From assembly GCA_028712255.1 (NCBI GenBank), contig JAQTQJ010000005.1, positions 20,950 to 84,949 of the forward strand: DNA of 64,000 bases, in the 5' to 3' direction. This document shows positions 15,001 to 64,000 of the stretch, piece after piece. How positions within the stretch are numbered: position 1 is the first letter of the stretch; each line of letters opens with the position of its first letter. This stretch comes from Candidatus Omnitrophota bacterium (GTDB lineage: Bacteria > Omnitrophota > Gorgyraeia > Gygaellales > Profunditerraquicolaceae). The notes under the pieces are model-generated. The model worked only from the letters and a program-made list of their open reading frames with translations. It was not told where the DNA came from and did not search any database. The position numbers and the translations under genes were made by a program.

Positions 15001-18000
15001 AGTAGACAAGGTGGTAGATAAAGTTTCTTTAGAATTAGAAAGGGAGTTTAATTTAAGGCCTCAGGATTTCAAAGCGCAACTGGTCGGTGGTTGGTGGACG
15101 CAGTCTCAGGAGCTTGCACTAAAAATTACAAAATGCCTTGAAGAAAAACAGATAGCAATCGAAGGAATTGATGTTTTAAATAATCCCGAGAGGTTTATTT
15201 TTGATGGCAGGGACGCTTTCTACGGAGATTGTAGGATCATTTTAGATTTAGAAACAGGAGAAATATTTGATCTTATAGATTTAATAGAGCCTCACGACGG
15301 AATCTCAAGGCATATTATGCACTTTAGATATTACGCTGAATATATATTTAGGAGGATTTATAATGGAGGACAGCGAATGTTTGTTTTGGCTAAAAAAATT
15401 ACCGTTGTCCCCAATTTAAAGAAACTATTTTTAAGTTTATTAATTGCCATGTATTTTTTCTTAAGCCCCTTGCCTAGTAATATAAGTTTTATTGCTCCAG
15501 GGGTGGTTACAGCGAGTGCCCAGACGCCAACTCCTACCCAATTGTCTACTGAAGATGATTATCTAAATCGAGGTAACGAACATTTTTTTAAAAAAGAATA
15601 TGATGCGGCGATTGAAGATTATACTCAGACAATAAAATTAAACCCAACAAATGCCTTTGCTTATCATAATCGAGGAGTCTCATATAATAACAAAGTTGAT
15701 TATGATAGAGCGATTCGAGATTACGATCAGGCAATATTACTAAATCCAAAATATGCTGAGGCTTACAATAGCAGAGGTCTCGCTTATTATTTTAAAGGAG
15801 AAAATGAGAAAGCAATAAAAGATTATGATAGGGCAATAGAATTAGAACCCGATAATGTAAAGTTTAGAGATTTTCGAGCAGATGCTATAGGAAAATTATC
15901 GGTAAAACCAACTTCTACCCTTACAGCGACAGTTACGCGTACTCCTATACCTAAAACATCTACTCCTGTACTTAAATCATCTACGCCTACAGCAACAGCC
16001 ATACATACTCCCATCGTAACCAATTCGCCAACGCCAACATTTATGCCTATCGTATCTAGGGTGGCGACATGGACAGTAATACCTGTTTCCGCAGTTGAAG
16101 GCCCTGGAACGTTGGATAGGATCAAAGATCACTTGAAAGATAAGTGGTTGTGGTTAATTTTTACAATAGGACTAATAGCTATTTTTATTAAATGGAGACA
16201 GCGAATATTTATTTTTGCTCAAAAAATGGTCATTATTCCTAATTTAAAAGGATTTCTTAAATTTAAACCAGTCAGATTTTACTTAGGGTCGGGTAAAGAA
16301 ATTAATAAATTAACTATTCAAGAACGGCTATCTCTAGCCAAGCTGGCAGATCAATATTACGTTAAACAGATTAAGGATGTCCAGCCGAGCCTTATTTGTA
16401 CTGTTAAGAAAATCTTTAGCTTGAGGGGCCTGATCCTTATGTTGGCCGGAGGATTGATTACTTTTAAACTTTCTGTTTCCAATGATTGGCTTACTTTGGC
16501 CCTCGGAGCATTCTTTATGACTTTGTTGCCATACCTGCTTTCTGTCATCTATAATTTCTTCTTTTCATATATAGAACGCTATAGATTCCGTAGTGAATTT
16601 GTCAGGCAATATCTAAGAGATAAAAAAGTACAAGATAAAATAAAAGAAGAGCTTTCACAGATTAAGTCGGTGACTCAACCTTTACTTTCCATTAGAAGTT
16701 TATGGAATGATTTTACTTTAAGATCTCCTGTGTTTGCCGGTATTGTTATCTTTATTTTAGTAAAGGCCCAGATAGTTTTCTGGGGTTACTTAGCTGGTTT
16801 GGCAATTATCCCCTTGATTAGAATTGATATTGTTAACTTTACCTTAACTGGCATATTATCGACAATTTTAAAACTTATAAAATGGGAATGGTTTATCACT
16901 CCGGGTTTACAATTGGTAAATACATTAAATAATTTGGGTTTTGCTTTTACATTAGGGGATATTATTAAGTTGAGTGTAATTGCTTTAGGGTTAGCAATAC
17001 TATACACATCGCGCCACCGTAAAACATTACGTAAAATTGTTATTCATAATTTTAGGCAATTCTGGGTTAATCTAGTACACATCCTGGTTATTATTGCTAT
17101 AATGGGGAATCTCGGACTTAGTAGTTTTATGTTAAATAATTTCAAGCAAGCAACTGGAATTAGATTTCCTCAAGCGATTCATGCTCCTCTTAGCGGTAAA
17201 GTGGATGCAGGAATTTGGAATAGGGCTAATTTTATTTATCAACAGTTAAAAATAAATTCCGACTTAGCTTTGAAGATGGAGAACGGCCAGCAAGAATTGG
17301 AATTTCTATTAGAAGAATTTAAGGCGGGTAATGATATTAAAATCGAGGGGCCGACTGCTCCGGAGGTCAGGCAATTTTGTCTTTTCCTTCTGGGTCAGAA
17401 AGACAATACTCGGTCTAGAGAACTTCTTAATTTAGCTTTAAATGATCCGGATAAAGATGTACGCACGATGGCAATAATTTCTTTAAGTATAGCTGGCGAT
17501 ACGAAAGTAGCGTCTTTGCTTAATAATGCTTCGTTTAGGCAGGGAGGCCAGGTTCAGCAAGCGGCAGTTATTAGTTTGAAAAGTGTAAAGTCTTCTGAGG
17601 TAACGAATTTTCTACTAAAGAGTTTAAAGGATAATTCGCGTTCGGATATCCGTTCTGCTGCGGCAGGGGGGTTGATGGACAGAGTAAGCTTGCAGACAGT
17701 TAAAGATGCTTTGATATTCGCTTTAAATGATCCCGATCCGCTGGTAAGGAAAGCAGCGATTAAATCTTTGGCGCCGATAATCACAGCTGTAATTCCTCAA
17801 GTGGATTTAAAGACAATTGAGTCCATAAAACCACTTTTGTCTGATCCGGATTTGAATGTTCGTCAAGTTGCAATATTAGTTCTAGCTTTACGACTAGATG
17901 ATTTTCCTGGTAATTTAGGCCTTCTTATGCCTAAATTGACTGATTCTGATCAGCAGATTCGTTTGACTACCGTAGCAGCCGTAGGTTCACACCTAGATAA

Positions 18001-27783: not shown

Positions 27784-27858
27784 TCATTGCGAGGAGCGAT
27801 AGCGACGAAGCAATCTAAACCGGGATTGCTTCGGGCACTTCGTGCCCTCGCAATGACA
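27783..27858 (+). repeat. Composite palindromic element, family II copy 1. Structure: GTCATTGCGAGG...CGAAGCAATC..GATTGCTTCG..CCTCGCAATGAC.
   Basis: Nested inverted repeats. Sits between the SBP stop and the permease gene. Confidence 0.8.
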
Positions 27859-27877
27859 CATAATAACGATTAACCAG

Positions 27878-32172: not shown

Positions 32173-32188
32173 ATAATAGAAGACAAGG

Positions 32189-32263
32189 GTGTCATTGCGA
32201 GGAGCCGAAGGCGACGAAGCAATCCAAATCGAGATTGCTTCGCCCTGCGGGCTCGCAATGACG
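32189..32263 (+). repeat. Family II palindromic element, copy 3.
   Basis: gtgtcattgcgaggagccgaaggcgacgaagcaatcc...gattgcttcgccctgcgggctcgcaatgac. Confidence 0.8.
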
Positions 32264-32280
32264 AAATGATGGAGGTGGGT

Positions 32281-44577: not shown

Positions 44578-44613
44578 AGATTGCTTCGTCGCTGTCGCTC
44601 CTCGCAATGACAC
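44537..44613 (+). repeat. Family II palindromic element, copy 5, at the mnmG 3' end.
   Basis: gtgtcattgcgagcgaccgaagggagcgaagcaatc...gattgcttcgtcgctgtcgctcctcgcaatgacac. Confidence 0.8.
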
Positions 44614-44651
44614 GATTAATTTCGAAATTTTGATTGTTATAAGAAAAGGCA

Positions 44652-45326: not shown

Positions 45327-45359
45327 CAGTAACAGCTTAGTTCTCGGAAGTATCCGTCG

Positions 45360-45439
45360 GTGTCATTGCGAGTCCGCCGAAGGCGGACGAAGCAATCTAA
45401 TAAAAGATTGCTTCGTCGCTATCGCTCCTCGCAATGACA
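45360..45439 (+). repeat. Family II palindromic element, copy 6. A degenerate short relative gtcattcccgctttcgcgggaataac lies at 52398-52426.
   Basis: gtgtcattgcgagtccgccgaaggcggacgaagcaatc...gattgcttcgtcgctatcgctcctcgcaatgacac. Confidence 0.8.
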
Positions 45440-45475
45440 CAGATAATTCCAAGGGCTGAGCTGAACAATTAAAAA

Positions 45476-46168
45476 ATGAAAGAAAAAATATTAATTGTTG
45501 AAGACGAAAAAGATATTGTTAAGATGCTCAGGTATAATCTTGAAAAAGAAGGGTTTAAGGTTATTGATGCCAGAGATGGAGAGGATGCTCTAGATTTGGC
45601 TGTGCGCCAGCATCCGGATCTTATTTTGCTGGATTTAATGCTTCCGGGTATGGATGGTTTGGAGGTATGTAAGGCTTTAAAGAAGGAAAGTAAGACCGGT
45701 TCCATACCGATAATTATGCTTACTGCAAAAAGCCAGGAATCGGATAAAGTGGTAGGGCTAGAGCTGGGTGCCGATGATTATATTACTAAACCATTTAGCC
45801 CGCGCGAGCTGATTGCGCGCATTAAAGCGGTTTTACGCCGCGCAACTGAAAAAGAAAAGCTCCCTGAAATATTTCAAGTAGAAGATTTAAAAATAGATTT
45901 TGCCAAGATCTCCGTGAACGTTAAGGATAAACCGGTTGAGTTAACCTCAAAAGAGTTTGAGCTTTTAAAAACCCTGCTTAAAGCCAAAGGTAGAGTTTTA
46001 TCACGTGATTATCTCTTGGACACTATCTGGGGTTTTGATCATGCCATGGAGATTCAAACACGCACAGTGGATGTGCATATCCGCACTTTACGTAAAAAAT
46101 TAAAAAGTGCATCCAAGTATATTATAACAGTTAAGAATTACGGTTACCGTTTTGAAACCGAGGATTAA
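45476..46168 (+). CDS. phoB: OmpR/PhoB family response regulator.
   Basis: REC domain (DLILLDLMLPGMDG) plus winged-helix C-terminus. Adjacent to PhoR and pst genes. Confidence 0.85.
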   Translation: MKEKILIVEDEKDIVKMLRYNLEKEGFKVIDARDGEDALDLAVRQHPDLILLDLMLPGMDGLEVCKALKKESKTGSIPIIMLTAKSQESDKVVGLELGADDYITKPFSPRELIARIKAVLRRATEKEKLPEIFQVEDLKIDFAKISVNVKDKPVELTSKEFELLKTLLKAKGRVLSRDYLLDTIWGFDHAMEIQTRTVDVHIRTLRKKLKSASKYIITVKNYGYRFETED

Positions 46169-46170
46169 AC

Positions 46171-47277
46171 TTGTTCAATTCCCACCTAAAAAAGAAGATC
46201 TTTGAGTTAGATTCTCAGCTAGAAACATTCAAAAAACGCATTAACATTCTAGAAAACGAGAACAACCGCATACATGCCATATTAAATAGCATGGTTGAAG
46301 GGGTAATCGCGGTAGATAGGGATACGCGTGTCCTTTGGCTTAATCCGACAGCTGAAGATATTTTTAATATCTCTCAGGGCAGTGCGCAAGGCAGGATTTT
46401 TCTGGAGGTGTTTCCTAATAATGATATTGCTGCGATTATAGCTTTGGTTTTAAAAAAAGGGGAACATATCTCTAAAGAGTTAACTCTTATTTGGCCGATG
46501 CAGAAAGTATTTCAGGTGAACGCTTCGCCCATCTTTGAATCTAAAGCAACAAGTGGCTGCCTTATGGTTATACATGATATTACCGAGATAAGGCGCCTGG
46601 AAAACATGCGCCGGGATTTTGTGGCCAATGTTTCACATGAATTAAAAACTCCTCTTACTTCTATAAAGGGCTTTGTGGAGACTCTTTTAGAGGGTGCCAT
46701 CAACGATAAAGAGAATAGCGTTAACTTCCTAAAGATAATTAATGATCACGCTGATAGGCTTAGTACTTTGATTAATGATTTGCTTGATCTTTCGCATATC
46801 GAATCAAAGCAGATGCAATTAAGAAGGGATAAATTTGATTTGTTAGGGCTTATTAATGAAATTATATTGGGGTTTAATTCTCAGGCCAAAAAGAAAGAAA
46901 TAGAAATTAATTATAAATTACCTCAAAGCTTAGAGATCATCGCTGATAAGAGCAAGATCGAACAGGTATTTACCAACTTAATTGATAATGCTATTAAATA
47001 TAATAAAGAAAAAGGCTTTGTGAAGATTTATTCTGAAGAACCTGTAAACAAGATAAAGATTGTTATCGAGGACTCCGGCCCAGGAATACCTGCAAAAGAT
47101 ATCCTTCGTATTTTTGAGCGTTTCTATCGTGTAGATAAAGCCCGCTCGCGCCAGCTTGGAGGCACCGGGCTTGGGTTATCTATTGTTAAGCATATTATCG
47201 AGCTGCATGGCGGTAATGTTGGCGTTGAAAGTACTGAAGGAATAGGCTCGAAGTTTTGGTTTATACTTCCAAGGTAG
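46171..47277 (+). CDS. phoR: Sensor histidine kinase PhoR-like (PAS + HisKA + HATPase).
   Basis: H-box FVANVSHELKTPLTSI. N, G1 and G2 boxes DNAIKY and GGTGLGLSIV. Confidence 0.85.
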   Translation: MFNSHLKKKIFELDSQLETFKKRINILENENNRIHAILNSMVEGVIAVDRDTRVLWLNPTAEDIFNISQGSAQGRIFLEVFPNNDIAAIIALVLKKGEHISKELTLIWPMQKVFQVNASPIFESKATSGCLMVIHDITEIRRLENMRRDFVANVSHELKTPLTSIKGFVETLLEGAINDKENSVNFLKIINDHADRLSTLINDLLDLSHIESKQMQLRRDKFDLLGLINEIILGFNSQAKKKEIEINYKLPQSLEIIADKSKIEQVFTNLIDNAIKYNKEKGFVKIYSEEPVNKIKIVIEDSGPGIPAKDILRIFERFYRVDKARSRQLGGTGLGLSIVKHIIELHGGNVGVESTEGIGSKFWFILPR

Positions 47278-47289
47278 TTTTCTTAGTGA

Positions 47290-47378
47290 GATCCTTCGTC
47301 GCTTCGGTCATATCTAGGGCTCTTCAGGATAAATGCGCCTCTAATTAAAATAATTGGCGCATTTAGTTTTACTTACAT
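47290..47378 (+). promoter_or_regulatory. Conserved 3'/intergenic dual-hairpin element: GATCCTTCGTC...TCAGGATAAAT followed by hairpin aaatgcgcc/ggcgcattt and a TTTTACTTACA box. Copy A, after phoR.
   Basis: Relatives at 48194-48266, 58521-58618 and 61325-61423. The ATCCT/AGGAT arms and the AAAT...ATTT stems are conserved, while the loop sequences vary. Confidence 0.45.
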
Positions 47379-47533
47379 TTTACCTGCCTTTGAAGCGGAT
47401 TTAACTACCTCCTTTTATACTATCTTTAGAGTTAAAAAGGAAGGAGGTGAAATGTTTAACGAGTTAGTGTTATTGGGGATATTCTGTATATTGACAGAAT
47501 TTAAAATTAACAAGTTATTTAATAGGAGAGAAT

Positions 47534-48190: not shown

Positions 48191-48328
48191 AAAGATCTTT
48201 CGCTAACGCTTTAGGATAAATGCGCCCGTATGTTAAAAAATTATAGCGCATTTAATTTTACGTAGATTTAACATTGGTTTGGTATAAATAAGGTATAATA
48301 TACAGTAAAGATAAATGGAGGATTTAAA

Positions 48329-54435: not shown

Positions 54436-54500
54436 AAGCTGTCAGCTGTAAGCGGTAAGTTTTAAGCTTACAGCTTATAACTTAAAGCTTATGGCTTAGT
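54436..54500 (+). repeat. Family III palindromic element (GTAAGCGG.AAGTTTTAAGCTTACAGCTTATAACTTAAA core).
   Basis: Related copies at 60886-60952 and 62910-62976. Nested inverted repeats ctgtaagc/gcttacag. Confidence 0.65.
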
Positions 54501-54518
54501 TTTTAGGGCCTATAAAAA

Positions 54519-56360: not shown

Positions 56361-57083
56361 ATGGTGGTGAAAAAGAAGGAAAATTATGAAATATACGTAA
56401 AACAGATCGAGGCTATTTCAAAAGTGGCGAATTTGCTTACCTCGGGAATGTATTTGGAGGAAATTTTACGTTTAGTGGTGCAGGTTACCGCTGAAATTAT
56501 GAATTCTAAAATTTCTTCTTTAATGCTGCTTGACCCGGAGAAAAAAGAGCTGGTGGTTAAAGCTACCCAATCAATATCCGAGGCATATAATAAGAAGCCG
56601 AATATCCGTTTAGGCCAGGGGATAGCCGGCGCGGTGGCACAGGAGAACAAGCCGATGTGTATCTTGGATATTAAGACCGATGCGCGCTACCTGAACCAGG
56701 ATATTGCTAGAAAAGAGGGTCTTTGTTCTTTAGCCTGCGTTCCGCTGGCAGTCAAGGGAAGAGTTATTGGAGTGCTTAATTGTTATACTTCTAAAAAGCA
56801 TAAATTTTCCAAGCATGAATTGGATCTTCTGACGGCTTTGGCTAATCAGGCAGCCATTGCTATTGAAAACGCAGAGCTTGATTTACGCGCGCGCTCCGCA
56901 GAGGAGGCTCTTACCATCCGTAAATTAGTCGAACGGGCAAAGGATATTCTGTCTCAGGAAGCTAATATTTTGCCTTCAGAGGCTTATCGGCTGATTCAAA
57001 AGCAAAGCATGGATATGCGTAAATCCATGCGTGAAGTGGCAGAAGCCATAATTCTAGCTAAAGATATTAGAGGTAAGAGGTAG
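56361..57083 (+). CDS. GAF-ANTAR regulator (RNA-binding antitermination regulator with a GAF sensor domain).
   Basis: C-terminal ANTAR signature IRKLVERAKDILSQEANILPSEAYRLIQKQSMDMRKSMREVAEAII. N-terminal GAF-like domain. Confidence 0.75.
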   Translation: MVVKKKENYEIYVKQIEAISKVANLLTSGMYLEEILRLVVQVTAEIMNSKISSLMLLDPEKKELVVKATQSISEAYNKKPNIRLGQGIAGAVAQENKPMCILDIKTDARYLNQDIARKEGLCSLACVPLAVKGRVIGVLNCYTSKKHKFSKHELDLLTALANQAAIAIENAELDLRARSAEEALTIRKLVERAKDILSQEANILPSEAYRLIQKQSMDMRKSMREVAEAIILAKDIRGKR

Positions 57084-57114: not shown

Positions 57115-57762
57115 ATGGAATTTTTCCCAAAGTTAATCGATGTATTACTTCATTTTAATACCTACCTTAGTGTTTTAATCCAGCAGTGCGGTTTGTGGAC
57201 ATATCTTATACTTTTTGGGGTTATTTTTGCGGAGACCGGATTTGTGGTAACGCCGTTTCTGCCCGGGGATTCGCTTCTTTTTGTGTTAGGCGCTTTTTCC
57301 GCCCAAGGAACATTTAATCCTTTTGTTTTGTCCGGAATTCTCATGTTTGCGGCGATTTTAGGCGATAGTGTCAATTATGCTATCGGGAAATATTTAGGAA
57401 ATCGGCTGATTTCCGCTAGACACATCCCTTTTTTTAAGAAAGAACATTTGGACCGGACCCACCATTTCTATAAAAAGTATGGCGGCAAAACAATTATTTT
57501 AGCCAGGTTTATACCTATAGTAAGGATGTTTGCTCCGTTTATCGCAGGTATCGTGCGTATGGATTATGCCAAATTCTTTATCTATAATGTAATAGGGGGC
57601 ATATTATGGGTAGCAATCTTTGTGTTTGGAGGTTTTTATTTCGGAAATATTCCTATTGTGAAAGAAAATTTTTCTGTAGTTACGCTACTAATTATTAGTA
57701 TCTCGATAATACCGGTTATAGTTGAATTTATTAAAGCGAGAAGAAAAAAGAATTTACCTTGA
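57115..57762 (+). CDS. DedA/SNARE-associated family membrane protein.
   Basis: PGDSLLF and ARFIPIVRMFAPFIAGIV motifs. Confidence 0.8.
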   Translation: MEFFPKLIDVLLHFNTYLSVLIQQCGLWTYLILFGVIFAETGFVVTPFLPGDSLLFVLGAFSAQGTFNPFVLSGILMFAAILGDSVNYAIGKYLGNRLISARHIPFFKKEHLDRTHHFYKKYGGKTIILARFIPIVRMFAPFIAGIVRMDYAKFFIYNVIGGILWVAIFVFGGFYFGNIPIVKENFSVVTLLIISISIIPVIVEFIKARRKKNLP

Positions 57763-57997
57763 CAGTAGTAAAAGGTATGGTATGCTTTAATTAGATTACA
57801 GCGTTGTAGTAAAAGACACAGAAGTCTTCTAGGCGGTTAGGTTTGCTTAGGAGGCTTTTTGTTGGTCAGGACTAAGGCGTCCTTACCCGATAAAAGGGTG
57901 AGGACGTTTTTTATTGTACGGGAGATTAGTATATCTAGTAGGGACTGTCCCACGACAAGTTAAGTATAATTTGCTGCTAACGAAAAAAGGAATAGCA

Positions 57998-58519
57998 ATG
58001 AGTTTTGAGGAGCTGTATCATAAATTATCGCCAACAATTAAGCGGATTGCCTATAAGTTAAACGGACGCTACCGTTCCTTTAACCATGATGATCTGTACC
58101 AAGAGGCTTCAATCCACCTTTGGAGTAATTTCTTAAAAGGGAAACTTAACGATAAAACTGATAGCTATATTTTACAGGGGTGTTATTTTCACTTGAGGAA
58201 CCATATTCGAAAAGTAAATGAGTATTCCAATATTATTAGTATTGATACTCACCTGAGCACGAATGAGAAATCAACCATAGAGGATATTTTGGGTAAATTT
58301 TGGTCTTGTCCTGATTGCCGGGAAGATTTACACAATAAGTTTCTGGCGCAAAATATCCAAAATAACGGTTTTAGCCCAAGAGAGAAAAAGCTGCTTGCTT
58401 ATTTTAGCCAGGGCTTAACTACCAGGGATATAGGTAATCGTATGGGGATATCTCATGTTAGCGTAGTTAAGATGATGCAAAAAGTTAGAGCTAAGGCAAA
58501 AAAACATTTAGATAGATAA
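57998..58519 (+). CDS. Sigma-70 family (ECF-like) sigma factor. Start moved to ATG 57998, which has an aagga RBS.
   Basis: Region-2-like DLYQEASIHLW. Region-4 HTH LTTRDIGNRMGISHVSVVKMMQKVRAKAKK. Confidence 0.6.
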   Translation: MSFEELYHKLSPTIKRIAYKLNGRYRSFNHDDLYQEASIHLWSNFLKGKLNDKTDSYILQGCYFHLRNHIRKVNEYSNIISIDTHLSTNEKSTIEDILGKFWSCPDCREDLHNKFLAQNIQNNGFSPREKKLLAYFSQGLTTRDIGNRMGISHVSVVKMMQKVRAKAKKHLDR

Positions 58520-58588
58520 TATCCTTCGTCTCTAGATAAAAACTTATTGTAGACTCAGGATAAATTTTGCTTGGCAAAATTTAATTTG

Positions 58589-58618
58589 GTTACCAGATTT
58601 AGTTATTCTTTACTTGTA
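58589..58618 (+). promoter_or_regulatory. Promoter-like motif GTTACC-N16-TACTTGTA, upstream of the OM-protein/amt/glnB unit.
   Basis: The same bipartite motif with identical spacing recurs at 61394-61423 and 63403-63432. Confidence 0.5.
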
Positions 58619-58656
58619 GTAATGTAAAACACATTGAAGTGTAAGATTTAAACAAC

Positions 58657-58686
58657 GGCGTTCTATGAAAATAGAGCGCCTTTTTT
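58657..58686 (+). terminator. Leader intrinsic-terminator-like hairpin (ggcgttctat gaaa atagagcgcc + TTTTTT) between the promoter motif and the OM-protein gene.
   Basis: 10-bp stem followed by a T6 tract. Further hairpin/T-tract structures at about 58697-58716 and 58770-58800. Confidence 0.45.
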
Positions 58687-58841
58687 GTTTTAACCAGACG
58701 CAGGCGTCTTTTGCCCAACAAGGGCACACCCGCGCAATTCCTTATAAGCGCGGGGTGTTACTGAGAGGGGTTTAGAAAGGCGCTTTTTGTTTTTAAAAGC
58801 AATTTAAGCGCAACACGGGCATAATAATAAAAAGGAGAAAA

Positions 58842-59642
58842 ATGCGAAAATTATCAATGATTTTGTTTTTTCTGTTTTCTGTCCTCTGTTTTCTGTTCTC
58901 TGTATGTTATGCAACACCTTCAACGCTTATTTGGGCTCCTTCAACCGATATTCAACCTTATGGTTTGATCCATTTAACCGTAGATAACTACACGCCGGTT
59001 AAGAGCAGGGATCATAATGATAATCAGCTTTATGTTCAACAAGTTTATGGACCAACTTTTAGTTTGTTATCCAATAAGCCGGAAGATAACTTTTTAGGTA
59101 AATTTTGGTCGCCTTTAGGTAAAATAATGGCAGAGACTGGTTTTGATTACAAAAAGGGTTTTGGCTCCATACTGGACAAGTGGCCGGTATATTTTCATTT
59201 TAAATTCGGCGTACCTGAAAGCGCCTATTTTAACTATATGCCTGCATTTGCAATCGGTGTATATGATATGGGTTATAAGCATAATTTTACCAATAACAAT
59301 GTTTGGTACTTGAGGGCAGCAAAAACTGCTTCTATAGGTAAGTTTAATTTAGGTAGGTTCTCTGTCGGTTATTTTAACGGTAATGGCAGGACTTTGCGGG
59401 ATAAAAATGGAGAGCGTGATAATTCCGGGCCGATGATTGCTTGGGAACGCACGATTTCAGAGATAAGTGACAGGCTTTGGTTATGTGTGGATTATCAGGG
59501 AACGCAGTCATCTTACGGCGCGCTTAATTACGGATTTGCCTGGAAGTTTACGAATAATATCGTAGCGATACTTGCATATGATGTTTATAATAATCCGAAT
59601 TCAAAAAATACCGTAACGTTTCAGTTAGATGTTGATTTTTAA
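58842..59642 (+). CDS. Putative outer-membrane/secreted protein encoded upstream of amt.
   Basis: Signal peptide MRKLSMILFFLFSVLCFLFSVCYA. Aromatic-rich beta-strand-like pattern. C-terminal DVDF. Confidence 0.4.
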   Translation: MRKLSMILFFLFSVLCFLFSVCYATPSTLIWAPSTDIQPYGLIHLTVDNYTPVKSRDHNDNQLYVQQVYGPTFSLLSNKPEDNFLGKFWSPLGKIMAETGFDYKKGFGSILDKWPVYFHFKFGVPESAYFNYMPAFAIGVYDMGYKHNFTNNNVWYLRAAKTASIGKFNLGRFSVGYFNGNGRTLRDKNGERDNSGPMIAWERTISEISDRLWLCVDYQGTQSSYGALNYGFAWKFTNNIVAILAYDVYNNPNSKNTVTFQLDVDF

Positions 59643-59657
59643 CATAGGAGGAGCCAA

Positions 59658-60884
59658 ATGAATTCAGGTGATACAGCATGGGTTTTAATTTCATCAGCCC
59701 TTGTTTTACTGATGACTCCCGGCCTTGCTTTTTTCTACGGAGGCATGGTGCGGCGCAAAAATGTTTTAAGTGTTTTGATGCAATGTTTTATTATCATGTG
59801 TGTTTTAAGCCTTCAGTGGGTTTTGGTTGGTTATAGCCTATCTTTTCATCCGGGAAATGGATTTTGGGGAGGTTTACAATGGATGGGTTTAAATGGAGTA
59901 GGTTTAGAGCCTTACGCGGACTACGCAGGGTCAATACCACATCAAGCGTTTATGGTCTTTCAAGGGATGTTTGCCATAATTACACCGGCTTTGATTATTG
60001 GCGCGTTTGCCGAAAGGATGAAATTTTCCGCGTTTTTGATTTTTACTTTGCTTTGGGCAACGTTTGTTTATGATCCTTTATGCCACTGGGTTTGGGGAAT
60101 GGGTGGTTGGTTAAGAAATTTAGGCGCTTTGGATTTTGCCGGAGGTACGGTTGTGCATATCAATGCCGGTATTGCAGCTTTGGTTACGGCAATCGTATTA
60201 GGTAAAAGAAGTAACCTGGATAAAAATGTTCCTACGCCGCATAACATGCCTTTTGTGGTTTTAGGCACAGTGCTTTTGTGGTTTGGTTGGTTTGGTTTTA
60301 ATGCCGGCAGTGCGTTAGCGGCAAACGGCTTAGCGGTAAATGCGTTTGTGGTAACTAATACCGCAGCAGCGGCTGCGGGTTTAGCTTGGGCTTTGATCGA
60401 ATGGATGCATAATGGAAAGCCTACCATTTTTGGTGTCTGTTCTGGTGCAGTCGCAGGCTTAGTCGCGATTACTCCTGCAGCAGGTTTTGTGGGTGTAATT
60501 GGAGCTATAGTTATTGGTTTATTGGTGAGTGTAGTTTGTTTTATTGCCGTGACTGTAATCAAGCCGCTTTTTGGTTATGATGATTCTTTGGATGCATTTG
60601 GCGTACACTGTGTAGGAGGAATCTGGGGGGCGTTAGCTACAGGATTATTTGCTTCTAAGCTGATTAATCCTGCTGGAGCCAATGGGTTATTTTTTGGTAA
60701 TCCTAAACAATTCCTGACACAGGCTTTAGCTGTAGGTGTAACCATTGTTTATACAGGAGTTGTAACCTTTATTATTTATAAATTAGTGGATATTTTTATT
60801 GGGGTTAGGGTTGATGAGAAGTCAGAAGCTATAGGTCTTGACCTTACCCAGCATCGTGAGAGGGCATATACGATACTTGAATGA
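59658..60884 (+). CDS. amt: Ammonium transporter, copy 1.
   Basis: DFAGGTVVHINAGIAALV Amt signature. 11 TM helices. Confidence 0.9.
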   Translation: MNSGDTAWVLISSALVLLMTPGLAFFYGGMVRRKNVLSVLMQCFIIMCVLSLQWVLVGYSLSFHPGNGFWGGLQWMGLNGVGLEPYADYAGSIPHQAFMVFQGMFAIITPALIIGAFAERMKFSAFLIFTLLWATFVYDPLCHWVWGMGGWLRNLGALDFAGGTVVHINAGIAALVTAIVLGKRSNLDKNVPTPHNMPFVVLGTVLLWFGWFGFNAGSALAANGLAVNAFVVTNTAAAAAGLAWALIEWMHNGKPTIFGVCSGAVAGLVAITPAAGFVGVIGAIVIGLLVSVVCFIAVTVIKPLFGYDDSLDAFGVHCVGGIWGALATGLFASKLINPAGANGLFFGNPKQFLTQALAVGVTIVYTGVVTFIIYKLVDIFIGVRVDEKSEAIGLDLTQHRERAYTILE

Positions 60885-60885
60885 A

Positions 60886-60952
60886 AGCTCTAAGCCATAA
60901 GCCGTAAGCGGCAAGTTTTAAGCTTACAGCTTATAACTTAAAACTTAGAGCT
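60886..60952 (+). repeat. Family III palindromic element between amt1 and glnB1. An exact second copy lies at 62910-62976.
   Basis: agctctaagccataagccgtaagcggcaagttttaagcttacagcttataacttaaaacttagagct. The outer agctctaag/cttagagct and inner gtaagc/gcttac arms are inverted repeats. Confidence 0.65.
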
Positions 60953-60974
60953 AGAGTTTACAAAGGAGGATAAT

Positions 60975-61316
60975 ATGAAACTAGTGATTGCTATAATTCA
61001 ACCGTATAAGCTAGAAGAAGTAAAGGAGGAGCTGTATAAGGTAGAAGTAAACCTGATTACCGTAAGCGAAGTTTTAGGCCATGGCCGCCAGAAAGGTATC
61101 ACTGAAGTCTACCGCGGTTCTAAAGAAACCGGGAATCTCCTGCGAAAAATCCGCCTTGAGATTGCCGTAAACGATAATTATCTTGAACCGACAATCAAGG
61201 CAATTGTTAAAGGCGCCAAAACCGGTGAAACCGGAGATGGAAAAATATTTGTCCTCGATCTTAAAGAATGCATCCGTATCCGCACTGAAGAACGCGGGGC
61301 AGTGGCGATAGGGTAG
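60975..61316 (+). CDS. glnB: P-II nitrogen regulatory protein, copy 1.
   Basis: GHGRQKG and TGETGDGKIFV P-II motifs. T-loop YRGS. Confidence 0.9.
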   Translation: MKLVIAIIQPYKLEEVKEELYKVEVNLITVSEVLGHGRQKGITEVYRGSKETGNLLRKIRLEIAVNDNYLEPTIKAIVKGAKTGETGDGKIFVLDLKECIRIRTEERGAVAIG

Positions 61317-61393
61317 GAATTAGAGATCCTTCGTCTGTAGATAAAAGCTTATTGTGGACTCAGGATAAATTTTGCTTCGCAAAATTTAATTTA

Positions 61394-61423
61394 AGTTACC
61401 AAAACAGGTAGTTGTTTACTTGT
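61394..61423 (+). promoter_or_regulatory. Promoter-like motif GTTACC-N16-TACTTGTA, upstream of amt copy 2.
   Basis: See 58589-58618. Confidence 0.5.
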
Positions 61424-61481
61424 ACTATTATAGATTAATATAAGCACACAGTAGTGTTTATATTGAAGAAGCGCAATGTAA

Positions 61482-61525
61482 GCGCCAATACGGTTTATAA
61501 AATAACCGTAAAGGCGCTTTTTTTT
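61482..61525 (+). terminator. Leader terminator-like nested hairpin (gcgcc...acggtt/aaccgt...ggcgc + T8) upstream of amt copy 2.
   Basis: GC stem followed by TTTTTTTT. Confidence 0.45.
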
Positions 61526-61681
61526 CGCCAGAAATCGTGGCGAATCCGCCATGTATTATGGCGGAATTTACTTACCCTATTTTTACGCAATTGGTTATCC
61601 AGTTGAGCAAATTAATCGAAACAGTTTCCAGCCCAATCGGGAAATGGGGTTTAAGAGAAGAAACTATTTATGGGAGGTGAG

Positions 61682-62908
61682 ATGATTAATCAAGCGGATA
61701 CGTTGTTTGTTCTGATGTCGGCGGCGTTTGTAATGCTGATGACTCCCGGCCTTGCTTTTTTCTACGGAGGCATGGTCAGGCGCAAGAATATTTTAAGCGT
61801 TTTAATGCAATGTTTTGTTGCTTTATGTCTGTTGTCTTTACAATGGATAATTTTTGGTTATAGCCTATCTTTTGCTCCAGGAAATGGGTTTTGGGGAGGC
61901 CTTAGTTGGTTTGGTTTAAACGGAGTGGGGGCAGCTCCTTATGCGGGTTATTCTGTGACTATTCCGCATCAGGCATTTATGGTTTTTCAGATGATGTTTG
62001 CTGTTATAACTCCAGCGCTTATTATTGGTGCTTTTGCCGAAAGGATGAAGTTTTCGGCTTTCTTAGTTTTCACCCTACTTTGGGCAACCTTTGTTTATGA
62101 TCCTTTGTGTCACTGGATTTGGGGAGTAGGAGGTTGGCTTAGAAACCTTGGCGTGCTTGATTTTGCCGGAGGTATTGTTGTGCATACTAGCGCCGGAATT
62201 GCAGCTTTAGTTTCTACTATTATCATTGGTAAAAGAAAGAACTTGGAGCATACACCGTCTCCACATAACCTCCCTTTTGTAGTTTTAGGAACTGCGCTTT
62301 TATGGTTTGGCTGGTATGGTTTTAATGCCGGCAGCGCTTTGGCGGTAAATGGAATTGCAGTAAGCGCTTTTATTGCTACTAATACTGCTGCAGCCGCAGC
62401 CGGTTTAAGCTGGGCGTTCTTGGAGTGGATACGTAATGGCAAACCTACGGTTTTTGGTATTGTAACCGGTTCGATTGCTGGGCTTGCCACTGTTACTCCT
62501 GCTTCGGGATTTGTAAGCCCGATTTCAGCAATTATTATCGGTATTGCTGCCAGTATAATTTGTTTTATCGCGGTTGCAGTAACTAAACCGCGGTTTGGTT
62601 ATGATGATTCTTTGGATGCCTTCGGCGTGCATGGCGTAGGAGGAATACTGGGTACGCTTTTAACCGGGGTATTGGCTTCTAAAGCAATAAATCCGGCAGG
62701 AGCGGACGGTTTATTATATGGTAATCCTAAGCAGTTACTTATACAATTATTGGCGGTTACGGTTGCAGTAAGCTATACTTTTATTGCTACTTTTATTATT
62801 TATAAGCTCGTAGATATTTTCTTTAGGATGCGTGTAAGTGAGAAAGATGAGCTGGTCGGTCTTGACCTTACCCAGCATCGTGAGAGGGCATATACGATAC
62901 TTGAATGA
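61682..62908 (+). CDS. amt: Ammonium transporter, copy 2. Start set at ATG 61682, which has a ggaggtgag RBS.
   Basis: About 80% identical to copy 1. DFAGGIVVHTSAGIAALV. Confidence 0.9.
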   Translation: MINQADTLFVLMSAAFVMLMTPGLAFFYGGMVRRKNILSVLMQCFVALCLLSLQWIIFGYSLSFAPGNGFWGGLSWFGLNGVGAAPYAGYSVTIPHQAFMVFQMMFAVITPALIIGAFAERMKFSAFLVFTLLWATFVYDPLCHWIWGVGGWLRNLGVLDFAGGIVVHTSAGIAALVSTIIIGKRKNLEHTPSPHNLPFVVLGTALLWFGWYGFNAGSALAVNGIAVSAFIATNTAAAAAGLSWAFLEWIRNGKPTVFGIVTGSIAGLATVTPASGFVSPISAIIIGIAASIICFIAVAVTKPRFGYDDSLDAFGVHGVGGILGTLLTGVLASKAINPAGADGLLYGNPKQLLIQLLAVTVAVSYTFIATFIIYKLVDIFFRMRVSEKDELVGLDLTQHRERAYTILE

Positions 62909-62998
62909 AAGCTCTAAGCCATAAGCCGTAAGCGGCAAGTTTTAAGCTTACAGCTTATAACTTAAAACTTAGAGCTAGAGTTTACAAAGGAGGATAAT

Positions 62999-63340
62999 AT
63001 GAAACTAGTGATTGCTATAATTCAACCGTATAAGCTAGAAGAAGTAAAGGAGGAGCTGTATAAGGTAGAAGTAAACCTGATTACCGTAAGCGAAGTTTTA
63101 GGCCATGGCCGCCAGAAAGGTATCACTGAAGTCTACCGCGGTTCTAAAGAAACCGGGAATCTCCTGCGAAAAATCCGCCTTGAGATTGCCGTAAACGATA
63201 ATTATCTTGAACCGACAATCAAGGCAATTGTTAAAGGCGCCAAAACCGGTGAAACCGGAGATGGAAAAATATTTGTCCTCGATCTTAAAGAATGCATCCG
63301 TATCCGCACTGAAGAACGCGGGGCAGTGGCGATAGGGTAG
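62999..63340 (+). CDS. glnB: P-II nitrogen regulatory protein, copy 2. Identical nucleotide sequence to copy 1.
   Basis: Exact duplicate of 60975-61316. Confidence 0.9.
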   Translation: MKLVIAIIQPYKLEEVKEELYKVEVNLITVSEVLGHGRQKGITEVYRGSKETGNLLRKIRLEIAVNDNYLEPTIKAIVKGAKTGETGDGKIFVLDLKECIRIRTEERGAVAIG

Positions 63341-63345
63341 GAAAA

Positions 63346-63391
63346 CCAGGTGACGGTTCTCTTTCTTAAGAGAACCGTCACCTGGTTTTTA
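63346..63391 (+). terminator. Rho-independent terminator / REP-like hairpin ccaggtgacggttctc-tttcttaa-gagaaccgtcacctgg + TTTTT.
   Basis: Perfect 16-bp stem followed by a T-tract. Member of the GGGGACGGTTC hairpin family. Confidence 0.7.
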
Positions 63392-63402
63392 AGAAGATTG
63401 AA

Positions 63403-63432
63403 GTTACCAGAAATGATTCTTTTTTACTTGTA
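63403..63432 (+). promoter_or_regulatory. Promoter-like motif GTTACC-N16-TACTTGTA, upstream of glnN.
   Basis: See 58589-58618. Followed by hairpin agaggc...gcctct + T-rich at 63443-63485. Confidence 0.5.
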
Positions 63433-63537
63433 ATTAGAGAACAGAGGCGTTCTGGTGTATTAGAGAATGCCTCTTTTAATTTTTGCTGATTGTGGTAAGA
63501 TAAATCCAATATTCTTTTAATGTGCAAGGGGGGGAAA

Positions 63538-64000
63538 ATGAGCATAAGACAGAAGGTTTTATTTAAAATTAAGAGCACTGACTTGGAAAAAATTGATTCT
63601 CCGAAAAAGGTTTCTTCTTATTTTGGAGAAAATACTTTTAACACCGAAACTATGCAGAAGCATATCTCTAAGCCTACCTTTGAAGCTTTTAAGCTTTGGA
63701 TGTCTGAGGGCAAGACCATTACCATGGAACAGGCGAATGAGATTGCCGGTGCCATGAAAGACTGGGCGATGGCCAAAGGCGCCACATATTATACGCATTG
63801 GTTTCAGCCGATGACCGGCCTGACTGCAGAGAAGCACGATAGTTTCATCTCTATTACTGCTCCGGGAAAAGTAATTGAAAAATTTTCAGGCAATAAATTA
63901 ATCCAGGGTGAGCCGGATGCCTCAAGTTTTCCCTCAGGAGGAATTCGCGCGACTTTTGAAGCCAGAGGTTATACTGCCTGGGATCCTTCAAGCCCGGCAT
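63538..64000 (+). CDS. glnN: Glutamine synthetase type III, N-terminal fragment. Runs off the 3' window edge.
   Basis: Hand-translated as MSIRQK...[18 protein letters not shown]...[31 protein letters not shown], matching GSIII N-terminal motifs. Confidence 0.8.

Follow-up and report, generated by a model that had tools for sequence, protein, structure and literature searches.

A bipartite DNA motif, GTTACCA-N15-TACTTGTA, stands before the nitrogen-assimilation genes of the uncultured phylum Omnitrophota and is kept there almost letter for letter. As judged from the sequence, this motif is probably the promoter of a nitrogen-assimilation regulon, and the ECF-like sigma factor encoded next to it is the protein most likely to read it.

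Occurrence and conservation of the motif

The window, i.e. the whole stretch of 64,000 nt that was analysed, contains three exact plus-strand copies of GTTACC-N16-TACTTGTA as against 0.22 expected; none of 100 shuffles reached three, and a search of the window with up to two mismatches yielded no match beyond these. The preliminary description had listed three copies with the same boxes, and all three are indeed exact, except that the second starts one base further on (61395, not 61394). The extended consensus is GTTACCA-N13-TTTACTTGTA. The copies and the genes that follow them are:

58521..58587, + strand: dual-hairpin, terminator-like element, copy 1 (z = -2.4), preceding motif copy 1
58589..58618, + strand: putative promoter motif, copy 1, before the OM protein-amt1-glnB1 unit; 76 of 78 species have an orthologous exact copy 3' of the sigma gene
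58842..61316, + strand: nitrogen unit 1, with OM protein (58842-59642), amt1 (59658-60884) and glnB1 (60975-61316)
61326..61392, + strand: dual-hairpin, terminator-like element, copy 2, preceding motif copy 2
61395..61424, + strand: putative promoter motif, copy 2, before amt2-glnB2; orthologous copies occur in related loci
61670..63340, + strand: nitrogen unit 2, with amt2 (61670 or 61683 to 62908) and glnB2 (62999-63340)
63403..63432, + strand: putative promoter motif, copy 3, before glnN; orthologous copies precede glnN in related loci
63538..64000, + strand: 5' part of glnN, type III glutamine synthetase (GSIII_N, 197.7 bits), extending past the window

Unit 1 is recognised by Pfam through Ammonium_transp (442 bits) and P-II (92.5 bits); its OM protein has no Pfam match, and its synteny is conserved. 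The distance from motif end to start codon, previously given as 200-270 nt throughout, is 224 nt for the OM protein gene and about 246-259 nt for amt2, but only 106 nt for glnN.

Beyond the window, enrichment of the motif upstream of genes is evident: 83 loci, which total 1.15 Mb and represent about 80 Omnitrophota species, hold 144 exact copies where 0.005 would be expected. All 144 are on the gene strand and none on the other, and none of them lies inside an ORF. The units 3' of the motif are porin-amt-glnB, amt-glnB, glnN or glnA, HTH_8-gltB and permease-PII. When the -35 box was used as the anchor of a scan, TACTTGTA appeared 3' of the sigma stop codon in 76 of 78 species, with sigma identities of 44-85%; the -35 box abuts or overlaps this stop codon in most genomes. 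A motif-first metagenome scan returned 140 matches on 120 contigs. In some 85% of them, judged by eye, an attenuator leader precedes nitrogen genes (glnN, glnA, amt, porins, HTH_8-gltB, permease-PII, class I amidotransferase), and a strict P2-type hairpin is present in 95 of the 138 that could be assessed. The sigma gene is found on 43 of these contigs, in 41 of which the motif lies 6-151 nt past its stop. All these counts refer to loci around the sigma gene and to metagenome contigs, and further motif copies may lie at non-nitrogen genes far from the locus. A logo of the motif comprises two asymmetric boxes and a fixed, unconserved 16-nt spacer, with an A tract upstream and a T-rich run leading into the -10 box.

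The dual-hairpin element, which had been considered an integral part of the module, does precede motif copies 1 and 2 (67 nt, 94% identity between its copies), but only four related loci contain it (L006, L013, L031 and L120; the L006 copy has a compensatory change); as inspection of these loci indicates, it is a clade-specific insert outside the core module. As to the -10-like boxes previously reported at the Pho locus, the strings exist (47367 and 48256) but belong to TTTWAC-N5-TTTWAC direct repeats that have no GTTACC partner. They were rejected as relatives of the motif, being Pho-box-type repeats before TATAAT-like -10 elements.

The adjoining sigma factor gene

Directly upstream of motif copy 1 lies the gene of the proposed cognate sigma factor:

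57759..57786, + strand: predicted promoter for the sigma gene, of sigma70 type, TTGACA-16-TATGCT preceded by TG (10/12 matches plus TG)
57998..58519, + strand: ECF-like sigma factor gene, 173 aa, proposed cognate sigma (TIGR02937, AlphaFold2 model, PDB fold matches)

The protein scores 49.4 bits with TIGR02937 (cut-off 42.9), and its AlphaFold2 model (pLDDT 80.5) shows three helices, a linker and four helices; since the best PDB fold matches are all sigma factors, it can be described as a two-domain (sigma2-sigma4), ECF-like sigma. Family members with 44-91% identity all come from Omnitrophota. The predicted DNA-reading segments, namely DKTDSYILQGCYFHLKNYIRK (sigma2 loop plus helix 3) and GLTTRxIG..G.SHV.VVK (the sigma4 helix-turn-helix), are the most conserved parts of the protein and as invariant as the motif. 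In a deep second subfamily (28-34% identity), sigma2 reads GINESYVIKGCEFHIQNF; there, the -35 box GTTACCA is unchanged, whereas the -10 box is relaxed to TACTT-RWW (TACTTAAT, TACTTATA or similar in 10 of 12 promoters), as compared to TACTTGTA in 108 of 110 promoters of the first subfamily. This covariation was observed in six genomes and counts as one evolutionary event. The earlier suggestion that the adjoining sigma-family gene encodes the cognate factor is thus strengthened: phylum-wide adjacency, the conserved DNA-reading segments and the subfamily-tracking -10 box, i.e. evidence from adjacency and conservation, make it the best candidate. In one relative, another sigma-family gene is found near the locus (L210, 1016-1531).

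Standard TTGACA/TATAAT promoters are used elsewhere in the genome and also by the sigma gene, before which TTGACA / TAnnCT occurs at the same position in most related loci. Sigma70-like and sigma54-like sites were not found at the motifs, as had been proposed from the boxes, and sites of the sigma54 type (-24 GG / -12 GC) are not enriched here. The motif appears to behave, as was initially suggested, as a bipartite promoter of neither class before each nitrogen unit. The distance from the box to the first leader hairpin is about 10 nt, equal to that between the sigma70 -10 hexamer and the first hairpin of the sigma leader, so that the -10 element should lie in TACTTGTA; the start site anticipated about 7 nt past the box agrees with this, as a start at 6-8 nt would fit the hairpin position.

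Attenuator leaders and the GAF-ANTAR protein

About 10 nt past each motif begins an ANTAR-type attenuator, in which hexaloop hairpins, with A at position 1 and G at position 4 of the loop, overlap an intrinsic terminator. Similar structures precede the sigma gene, and a candidate regulator is encoded 1.5 kb upstream of motif copy 1:

56361..57083, + strand: GAF-ANTAR regulator gene, 240 aa, candidate nitrogen-sensing antiterminator (Pfam GAF_2, ANTAR)
57797..57916, + strand: sigma gene leader with two tandem ANTAR-type attenuators (fold z = -7.2); hairpins TAC-AGCGTT-GTA (57797-57808), AGAC-ACAGAA-GTCT (57814-57827, overlapping terminator 1 at about 57820-57864) and GGAC-TAAGGC-GTCC (57869-57882, overlapping terminator 2 at 57874-57910 plus T run)
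58629..58686, + strand: attenuator 1 of leader 1 (z = -5.1; covariation); P1 ACAC-ATTGAA-GTGT (58629-58642), P2 AAC-AACGGC-GTT (58651-58662), terminator 58657-58680 plus T6
58696..58788, + strand: putative second attenuator of leader 1, read from sequence; AGAC-GCAGGC-GTCT (58696-58709), terminator 3' arm AAAGGCGC plus T5 (58775-58788)
61435..61527, + strand: attenuator of leader 2 (z = -6.4); P1 stem 61435-61447 / 61454-61466 with loop ACAGTA, P2 GCGC-AATGTAA-GCGC (61471-61485, overlapping terminator 61480-61519 plus T8)
63439..63478, + strand: attenuator of leader 3 (z = -4.3); single P2-type hairpin GAAC-AGAGGC-GTTC (63439-63452, overlapping terminator 63443-63474 plus T4)

In an alignment of 41 sequences, P1 of leader 1 is paired in 98%, with compensatory changes in three of four pairs, and the terminator of the same attenuator in 92%, with five of ten pairs compensatory. 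The second attenuator of leader 1 carries an inserted palindromic element (about 58712-58757), and its AGACGCAGGCGTCT...AAAGRCGC-T-run unit recurs in many related leaders; the architecture of leader 2 recurs in orthologous amt2 leaders, and GGACTAAGGCGTCC with its terminator is kept across loci in the sigma leader. By pairing and covariation, the motif leaders are identified as ANTAR-type attenuators that fit the published definition (PMC3369931). The published model requires two hexaloop hairpins (PMC3369931), whereas the glnN leader has one, P1 being absent from it in this clade.

The regulator scores 87 bits with GAF_2 and 56.6 bits with ANTAR, its GAF part resembles the GAF domains of NifA and PtsP, and most related loci carry its gene close to that of the sigma (77-93% identity). 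ANTAR antitermination is known from the regulons of EutV, NasR and AmiR and from predicted nitrogen regulons (Ramesh et al. 2012, PMC3369931), which share with the leaders described here the paired stem-loops, the hexaloops, the second hairpin overlapping an intrinsic terminator, the location before PII, amt, glutamine synthetase and glutamate synthase genes, and an ANTAR-domain protein encoded nearby. In contrast to those regulons, the sensor here is a GAF domain (according to PMC3369931, no GAF-ANTAR protein has been characterised), some leaders have one hexaloop hairpin only, and a sigma factor gene, too, stands behind such attenuators. As its upstream region indicates, the sigma gene does not use the motif for autoregulation but has a sigma70 promoter and two ANTAR attenuators instead, which suggests a cascade.

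Alternative readings and the proposed cascade

Could the motif be a promoter for a different alternative sigma, the gene of which lies elsewhere, or for the housekeeping sigma aided by an activator that it cannot do without? The adjoining sigma would then be an ANTAR-controlled member of the nitrogen locus and have other targets. We consider this rather unlikely. Adjacency is circumstantial, no motif copy drives the sigma gene itself, the boxes differ from classic ECF boxes, and at least one further sigma-family gene occurs near the locus in one relative (L210); however, no other regulator is as consistently linked to the motif as the adjoining sigma (76 of 78 species, 41 of 43 sigma-bearing contigs), its DNA-reading parts are as invariant as the motif, and the -10 box changes together with its subfamily. 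Nor can TACTTGTA be used by a group-1 sigma, which would read it either as CTTGTA, which lacks the -11 A, or as TACTTG, which lacks the -7 T. It seems still less probable that the motif is the operator of a DNA-binding regulator, such as an OmpR-type factor or the small HTH_8 protein whose gene precedes gltB, and overlaps a weak sigma70 promoter. Although the HTH_8 gene is a conserved member of the locus, and GTTAC and TTTAC are 20 nt, or about two helical turns, apart, that gene itself lies downstream of a motif copy, the boxes are asymmetric, being neither palindromic nor arranged as a clean direct repeat, their spacing is rigid while the spacer is free, the orientation strictly follows the genes (144 to 0), and conserved sigma70 hexamers are absent even though the leader hairpin begins 10 nt downstream.

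The strict strand specificity would also suit a protein-binding or processing site that works as RNA in the leader of read-through transcripts; moreover, in most genomes the sigma gene and the motif are not separated by a terminator, so that the motif is probably also transcribed from the upstream promoter. Nevertheless, such a role is very improbable, as the motif has no predicted RNA structure (z = +0.33), the spacer shows no covariation, the -35 box is within the sigma coding sequence in some genomes, and copies in the window lie 3' of terminator-like hairpins. Finally, a local duplication might be invoked because amt-glnB is duplicated, 483 nt (60834-61316, i.e. glnB1 with the 3' end of amt1) being 100% identical to 62858-63340. 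This block ends before the motifs, the boxes are identical while the 16-nt spacers differ, so that the boxes are not merely part of the block, and some 80 species retain the same 14 bases specified by the motif; the chance that the copies are duplication leftovers or random matches is negligible, and the window shuffles together with the phylum-wide counts (144 copies vs 0.005 expected) rule this reading out.

ECF (group 4) sigma factors, such as sigmaE of E. coli and sigmaW of B. subtilis, recognise bipartite promoters. Like them, the Omnitrophota factor is a small sigma2-sigma4 protein whose gene is physically linked to its proposed target operon, and the motif shares with their promoters two highly specific boxes at a rigid spacing of about 16 nt. 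Atypically, the locus contains no anti-sigma gene, and transcription of the sigma gene does not start from the promoter that the factor is proposed to read; in addition, GTTACCA and TACTTGTA lack the AAC and CGT cores common in ECF promoters, and the proposed regulon concerns central nitrogen assimilation rather than envelope or stress functions. Such a group is not mentioned in the main text of the ECF reclassification paper. The regulon of sigma54/NtrC in Proteobacteria similarly assigns a dedicated alternative sigma to amt, glnK/glnB, glnA and gltB, but sigma54 belongs to an unrelated family with -24 GG / -12 GC geometry. Cyanobacterial NtcA (GTA-N8-TAC) and GlnR/TnrA sites are likewise conserved DNA signals before every nitrogen-assimilation operon; those, however, are palindromic or direct-repeat transcription-factor sites upstream of a sigma70 -10 element, whereas the motif is asymmetric and itself occupies the -35 and -10 positions. 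Comparable in its two layers is the Geobacter cascade of GnfL/GnfM and GnfK/GnfR for nitrogen fixation genes, described by Ueki and Lovley in 2010; there, initiation is reported to rely on sigma54 and an enhancer-binding protein, and a response regulator to serve as ANTAR protein. Specialised initiation would there, as here, be followed by ANTAR antitermination on the same nitrogen genes, but in Omnitrophota initiation would use an ECF-like sigma, the synthesis of which would itself be under ANTAR control.

With the adjoining sigma as the reading factor, the following scheme can be envisaged. Sigma domain 4 would bind GTTACCA as the -35 element, and sigma domain 2 would bind (T-rich)TACTTGTA as the -10 element, with transcription starting about 6-8 nt past the TACTTGTA box. 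Every transcript would open with an ANTAR-type attenuator, the last hexaloop hairpin competing with the intrinsic terminator, and read-through would need the GAF-ANTAR protein (56361-57083), presumably sensing nitrogen status via its GAF domain. Since an ordinary sigma70 promoter, behind which stand two attenuators of the same type, would drive the sigma gene, a feed-forward cascade may operate: the active antiterminator would permit sigma synthesis, the sigma would fire the motif promoters, and the antiterminator would act again on each target transcript. The regulon would thus cover ammonium uptake and glutamine/glutamate synthesis, with ANTAR antitermination as a second, RNA-level check on every transcript.

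The motif within the window and across Omnitrophota

The motif GTTACC-N16-TACTTGTA is present in the 64-kb window in three exact copies, all on the plus strand, and no other site appears when up to two mismatches are allowed. Three matches were reached in none of 100 shuffles. The three exact copies of the preliminary description stand, with the coordinates of the first and third unchanged and those of the second corrected by one base. The copies are embedded in the following gene order:

54519, aminotransferase gene
56361-57083, gene for a GAF-ANTAR protein
next, DedA gene
57998-58519, gene for a 173-aa sigma70-family protein
58589-58618, plus strand, motif copy 1
next, genes for an OM protein, amt and glnB
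61395-61424, plus strand, motif copy 2
next, second amt and second glnB
63403-63432, plus strand, motif copy 3
next, glnN

The gene-strand bias of the window is extreme: all 41 substantial ORFs in the 64 kb lie on the plus strand, the minus-strand ORFs being short and overlapping plus-strand genes, and a single giant ORF of 7245 aa spans 59-21796 (plus strand), in keeping with the taxonomy derived from the sigma family.

The 16-nt spacers of the three copies are unrelated and the boxes identical, and the duplicated amt-glnB block (60834-61316 and 62858-63340, 100% identical) stops before the motifs; therefore, the motif copies are not by-products of duplication. The identical block comprises 51 nt at the 3' end of amt, the amt-glnB spacer and the entire glnB, with the remainder of the two amt genes only ~70-73% identical, which suggests a recent gene conversion or a partial duplication. 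A palindromic spacer repeat, AAGC(T/C)GTAAGCGG.AAGTTTTAAGCTTACAGCTTATAACTTAAA..., separates amt from glnB and, in addition, precedes the aminotransferase gene (54436-54510, 60878-60976, 62902-63000), and REP-like intergenic palindromes (GTCATTGCGAG...GCAATC....GATTGCTTCG...CTCGCAATGAC) are found at 27784-27877, 32173-32265, 44578-44651 and 45327-45475.

Beyond the window, a set of 83 non-redundant loci (1.15 Mb) was compiled, of which 80 are species-level and surround sigma homologues with 44-85% identity, and three were retrieved via exact-protein look-ups. In this set, the 14 specified bases of the motif occur exactly 144 times on the gene strand and never on the opposite strand, against a composition-based expectation of 0.005 copies; all copies are intergenic, with none of the 144 inside an ORF of at least 120 aa. 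In a search anchored solely on GTTACC near the sigma stop codon, 76 of 78 species had TACTTGTA with the expected spacing. The other copies precede a second amt-glnB unit, glnN, an HTH_8-gltB (glutamate synthase) unit, and an amino-acid-permease-PII / PII / porin unit. The HTH_8 (Fis/NtrC-type DNA-binding) protein, of 60-143 aa, is always encoded directly before gltB (15703-16134 and 16941-17324 in the related loci L013 and L001, respectively, and L205-L210), and many genomes have a separate motif copy upstream of its gene; the protein may add a further regulatory layer.

A motif-first scan of metagenome contigs yielded 140 copies on 120 contigs. As judged by eye, ~85% of these have a leader like that of the window copies downstream and then nitrogen genes, including those for type I glutamine synthetase and class I glutamine amidotransferase, and ~17 appear to be matches by chance. 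With a strict regular expression, a hairpin of the P2 type (the second of the leader) was recognised at 95 of the 138 assessable copies. A sigma homologue is encoded on 43 of the contigs, and in 41 of them the motif lies 6-151 nt past its stop codon. Given this metagenome context and the phylum-wide position, random occurrence or placement inside genes, which the preliminary description had named as speaking against the motif, does not apply.

The motif as a candidate promoter

In a logo built from 149 motif instances, an A tract (-7 to -3, counted from the motif) leads into the invariant GTTACCA, after which come nine unconstrained positions, a T-rich stretch, the invariant ACTTGTA and a weakly conserved tTaaTGtAAg, where positions +6 to +9 are purines; the extended consensus can be written GTTACCA-N13-TTTACTTGTA. 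The boxes are asymmetric. As in bipartite promoters of alternative sigma factors, their spacing is rigid and the spacer free, the geometry is that of -35 and -10 elements, and the plus-strand copies are oriented with the genes that they precede. The distance to the leader offers an internal ruler: the first leader hairpin begins ~10 nt past the TACTTGTA box, and in the leader of the sigma gene the first hairpin is likewise 10 nt from a sigma70 -10 hexamer, which places the -10 element within TACTTGTA and the -35 element at GTTACCA.

Other readings of the motif can be weighed against these data. A structured RNA is discarded, as no structure is predicted for the motif (z = +0.33). A scan for sigma54 promoters (TGGCAC-N5-TTGCW, -24 GG / -12 GC, up to two mismatches) returned 22 matches as compared to 25.4 expected, none of them on the plus strand in the nitrogen intergenic regions, so that a sigma54 promoter is discarded as well. 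Housekeeping (sigma70) promoters carry TTGACA-17-TATAAT-like hexamers, with A in second and T in sixth place of the -10 hexamer. The sigma70 consensus scan detected the promoter of the sigma gene and gave no site at any of the three motifs; both scans agree with the preliminary description that the boxes resemble neither consensus. Promoters of the TTGACA/TATAAT type are in use elsewhere in the genome, and, with neither a sigma70-like nor a sigma54-like site at the motif, an alternative sigma factor is therefore needed. Taken together, the comparative sequence data strongly support the view that the motif is a promoter, and we consider this very likely.

Two extensions of the motif that had been proposed earlier did not survive comparison. 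The -10-like string TTTAC(T/G)TA had been linked to the Pho locus; the strings in that locus, however, lack a GTTACC partner and form TTTWAC-N5-TTTWAC direct repeats, which occur in the window only at 47367 and 48256 (0.11 expected). The 11-nt period continues through the arrays (47367-47410 and 48256-48300), which are followed by the sigma70 -10 hexamers TATACT or TATAAT, and a role as nitrogen -10 element is rejected. The arrays lie upstream of a DUF2490 gene and pstS, alongside genes for an OmpR-type regulator and kinase (45476-47277), pstSCAB and phoU; with 11-nt direct repeats in place of a -35 element, next to Pho genes and an OmpR-type regulator, they are probably Pho boxes, that is, candidate PhoB/PhoP sites.

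The dual hairpin noted before motif copies 1 and 2 is indeed there and folds into two hairpins. Beyond the window, however, just four close relatives have it, and in one of them (locus L006) a compensatory change, ATTC...GAAT, is seen. In other genomes the sigma stop codon touches or even shares bases with the -35 box, or different palindromes are inserted. Most genomes lack the element, which excludes it from the conserved promoter module and marks it as a terminator-like insert specific to the clade. In the window, elements of this two-hairpin family, in which (G)ATCCTTCG...CAGGATAAAT precedes a hairpin (AT-rich or GC) and ATTT, are intergenic, after stop codons, and may represent a terminator cassette or a small mobile element:

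47290-47365, two-hairpin element
48195-48255, two-hairpin element
58521-58587, two-hairpin element (dual hairpin before motif copy 1)
61326-61392, two-hairpin element (dual hairpin before motif copy 2)

Attenuator leaders and the GAF-ANTAR protein

The published ANTAR target consists of two small hexaloop stem-loops, the first loop base being A and the fourth G, and the second stem-loop overlaps an intrinsic terminator (PMC3369931). Each motif copy is followed by an attenuator that fits this definition, in leader 3 with one hairpin:

Leader 1 (before the OM protein-amt-glnB unit): hairpins ACAC-ATTGAA-GTGT and AAC-AACGGC-GTT; terminator 58657-58680; then a second unit, AGAC-GCAGGC-GTCT
Leader 2 (before the second amt-glnB unit): first hairpin (P1) with a 13-bp stem and loop ACAGTA; GCGC-AATGTAA-GCGC overlapping the terminator 61480-61519
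Leader 3 (before glnN): only GAAC-AGAGGC-GTTC, beginning 7 nt past the motif and overlapping the terminator 63443-63474; a single hairpin in this clade

These terminators and a further one at 57874-57910, in the leader of the sigma gene, share bases with hexaloop hairpins. When 41 orthologous first leaders were aligned, pairing reached 98% in P1 and 92% in the terminator, and compensatory changes were seen in three of the four P1 pairs and in five of the ten terminator pairs; the 3-bp stem of P2 is 93% paired and too conserved for covariation. Rfam searches at gathering thresholds over the whole window and with permissive settings over 57700-63600 returned chance hairpin matches only, with no curated family for the leaders or the motif. 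A palindromic element, GCCC..AGGGCACACCCGCGCAAT....TAAGCGCGGGGTG, splits the second terminator of leader 1 (~58712-58757) and is also inserted in attenuator leaders of five related loci (L001, L013, L028, L036 and L064); one possibility is a small mobile repeat able to tolerate, or take advantage of, leader regions.

The GAF-ANTAR gene, which matches PF03861 with 56.6 bits and also encodes GAF domains, is kept near the locus at 77-93% identity. The GAF domain of its product is closest to those of NifA and PtsP, which sense 2-oxoglutarate or glutamine, and by analogy one of these compounds may be the ligand here.

The sigma factor and a possible nitrogen circuit

The 173-aa sigma protein matches the sigma70-ECF profile TIGR02937 over its full length (49.4 bits at a cut-off of 42.9), with marginal Pfam matches to Sigma70_r2 (22.9 bits, below 24) and GerE (25.4 bits). 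Searching the PDB by sequence retrieved nothing beyond marginal matches to sigma28 and LuxR-type helix-turn-helix proteins, and it took a fold search to confirm that the protein is folded like a sigma factor. The AlphaFold2 model (pLDDT 80.5) comprises three helices, a disordered linker and four helices, and every top Foldseek match in the PDB is an ECF or group 3 sigma factor. Having sigma2 and sigma4 alone, a length within ~170-200 aa and an ECF profile match, the protein belongs with the ECF-type (group 4) factors. An exact-sequence look-up with the protein gave no match; two family searches returned 539 and 742 homologues, exclusively from Omnitrophota MAGs.

The most conserved segments of the family are residues 52-72, DKTDSYILQGCYFHLKNYIRK, and the helix-turn-helix of domain 4, GLTTRxIG..G.SHV.VVK. 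From what is known of ECF structures, we take residues 52-72 to be the loop and third helix of domain 2, the region that reads the -10 element. A second deep subfamily, of 28-34% identity and also from Omnitrophota (L205-L210, L106, L172, L187), retains the synteny, with a type I glutamine synthetase gene (glnA) replacing glnN, as well as the SHV helix and the GTTACCA box, and its domain-2 block is GINESYVIKGCEFHIQNF; in some of its genomes, the -35 box falls within the final codons of the sigma gene. In six sigma-anchored genomes of this subfamily, the -10 box is relaxed to TACTT-RWW, with TTTTTACTT kept and the final three bases variable (TACTTAAT and TACTTATA four times each, TACTTGTA twice, and two other variants); in the first subfamily, 108 of 110 promoters carry TACTTGTA. 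The co-change of domain 2 and the -10 box is essentially one evolutionary event. Such a paired change, with domain 4 and the -35 box unchanged, is nevertheless the best computational evidence for a cognate pair. The proposal that the adjacent gene encodes the cognate sigma factor, previously made from proximity, is now joined by the conserved DNA-reading segments and the -10 co-change, and, as far as sequences can tell, this protein is the likely reader of the motif.

The sigma gene itself is preceded by a strong sigma70-type promoter (TTGACA-16-TGgTATGCT, 57759-57786) and by a leader with two tandem attenuators, comprising the hairpins TAC-AGCGTT-GTA, AGAC-ACAGAA-GTCT and GGAC-TAAGGC-GTCC (hexaloops AGCGTT, ACAGAA and TAAGGC) with terminators (fold z = -7.2); promoter and attenuators are conserved in most loci. 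ECF (group 4) factors typically have their own genes behind the target promoter, which results in positive autoregulation. In contrast, no motif copy was found upstream of this sigma gene, where TTGACA-16-TATGCT and ANTAR attenuators stand instead, and autoregulation from the motif was not found. Likewise, a co-encoded anti-sigma factor is expected for ECF (group 4) factors, whereas none was seen at this locus: the sigma gene is flanked by DedA, GAF-ANTAR, nadE or permease genes upstream and porin or amt genes downstream, and no anti-sigma domain was seen in the window or in more than 80 loci, although a distant or novel anti-sigma could escape such a search.

The simplest reading of this arrangement is a feed-forward circuit. 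The GAF-ANTAR antiterminator would license synthesis of the sigma factor, the sigma factor would then fire the motif promoters, and the antiterminator would be required again on every target transcript. Such a cascade appears plausible from the order of the elements, and we lean towards it. In a broader proposition, for and against which we see about equal grounds, the Omnitrophota phylum would have swapped sigma54/NtrC, NtcA and GlnR/TnrA for a dedicated ECF-like nitrogen sigma factor without an anti-sigma, the amount of which would be set by attenuation, with the GAF-ANTAR protein gating both the sigma gene and all sigma-dependent transcripts. If true, one RNA-binding sensor and one sigma factor would make up a coherent feed-forward AND gate, and, as the promoter is nearly invariant across the phylum, it would form with the sigma factor an orthogonal pair that is ready for use.

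Alternative-sigma promoters and ANTAR attenuators before nitrogen genes are known kinds of elements. What seems to be new is an ECF-like sigma family putatively dedicated to central nitrogen assimilation, a candidate promoter nearly invariant over a whole phylum, an apparent lack of both an anti-sigma partner and autoregulation, and the predicted placement of the sigma gene under the same antiterminator as its targets. Searches of the open-access literature found no description of an ECF or nitrogen sigma factor of this kind in Omnitrophota and no characterised GAF-ANTAR protein, and such a system is described neither in the main text of the ECF reclassification paper nor in the main Omnitrophota genomics paper.

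Omnitrophota are a widespread phylum with almost no cultured members, and we know of nothing reported on their gene regulation. The present data outline a concrete regulon, in which one sigma factor, one 30-nt promoter and one RNA-binding sensor appear to control all genes of ammonium uptake and assimilation. This would add a new solution to the classic problem of global nitrogen control and would exemplify a sigma factor controlled by attenuation instead of an anti-sigma. In metagenomes, nitrogen-regulated genes could be tagged by the promoter sequence, which, together with the sigma factor, is also a candidate orthogonal part for synthetic biology.
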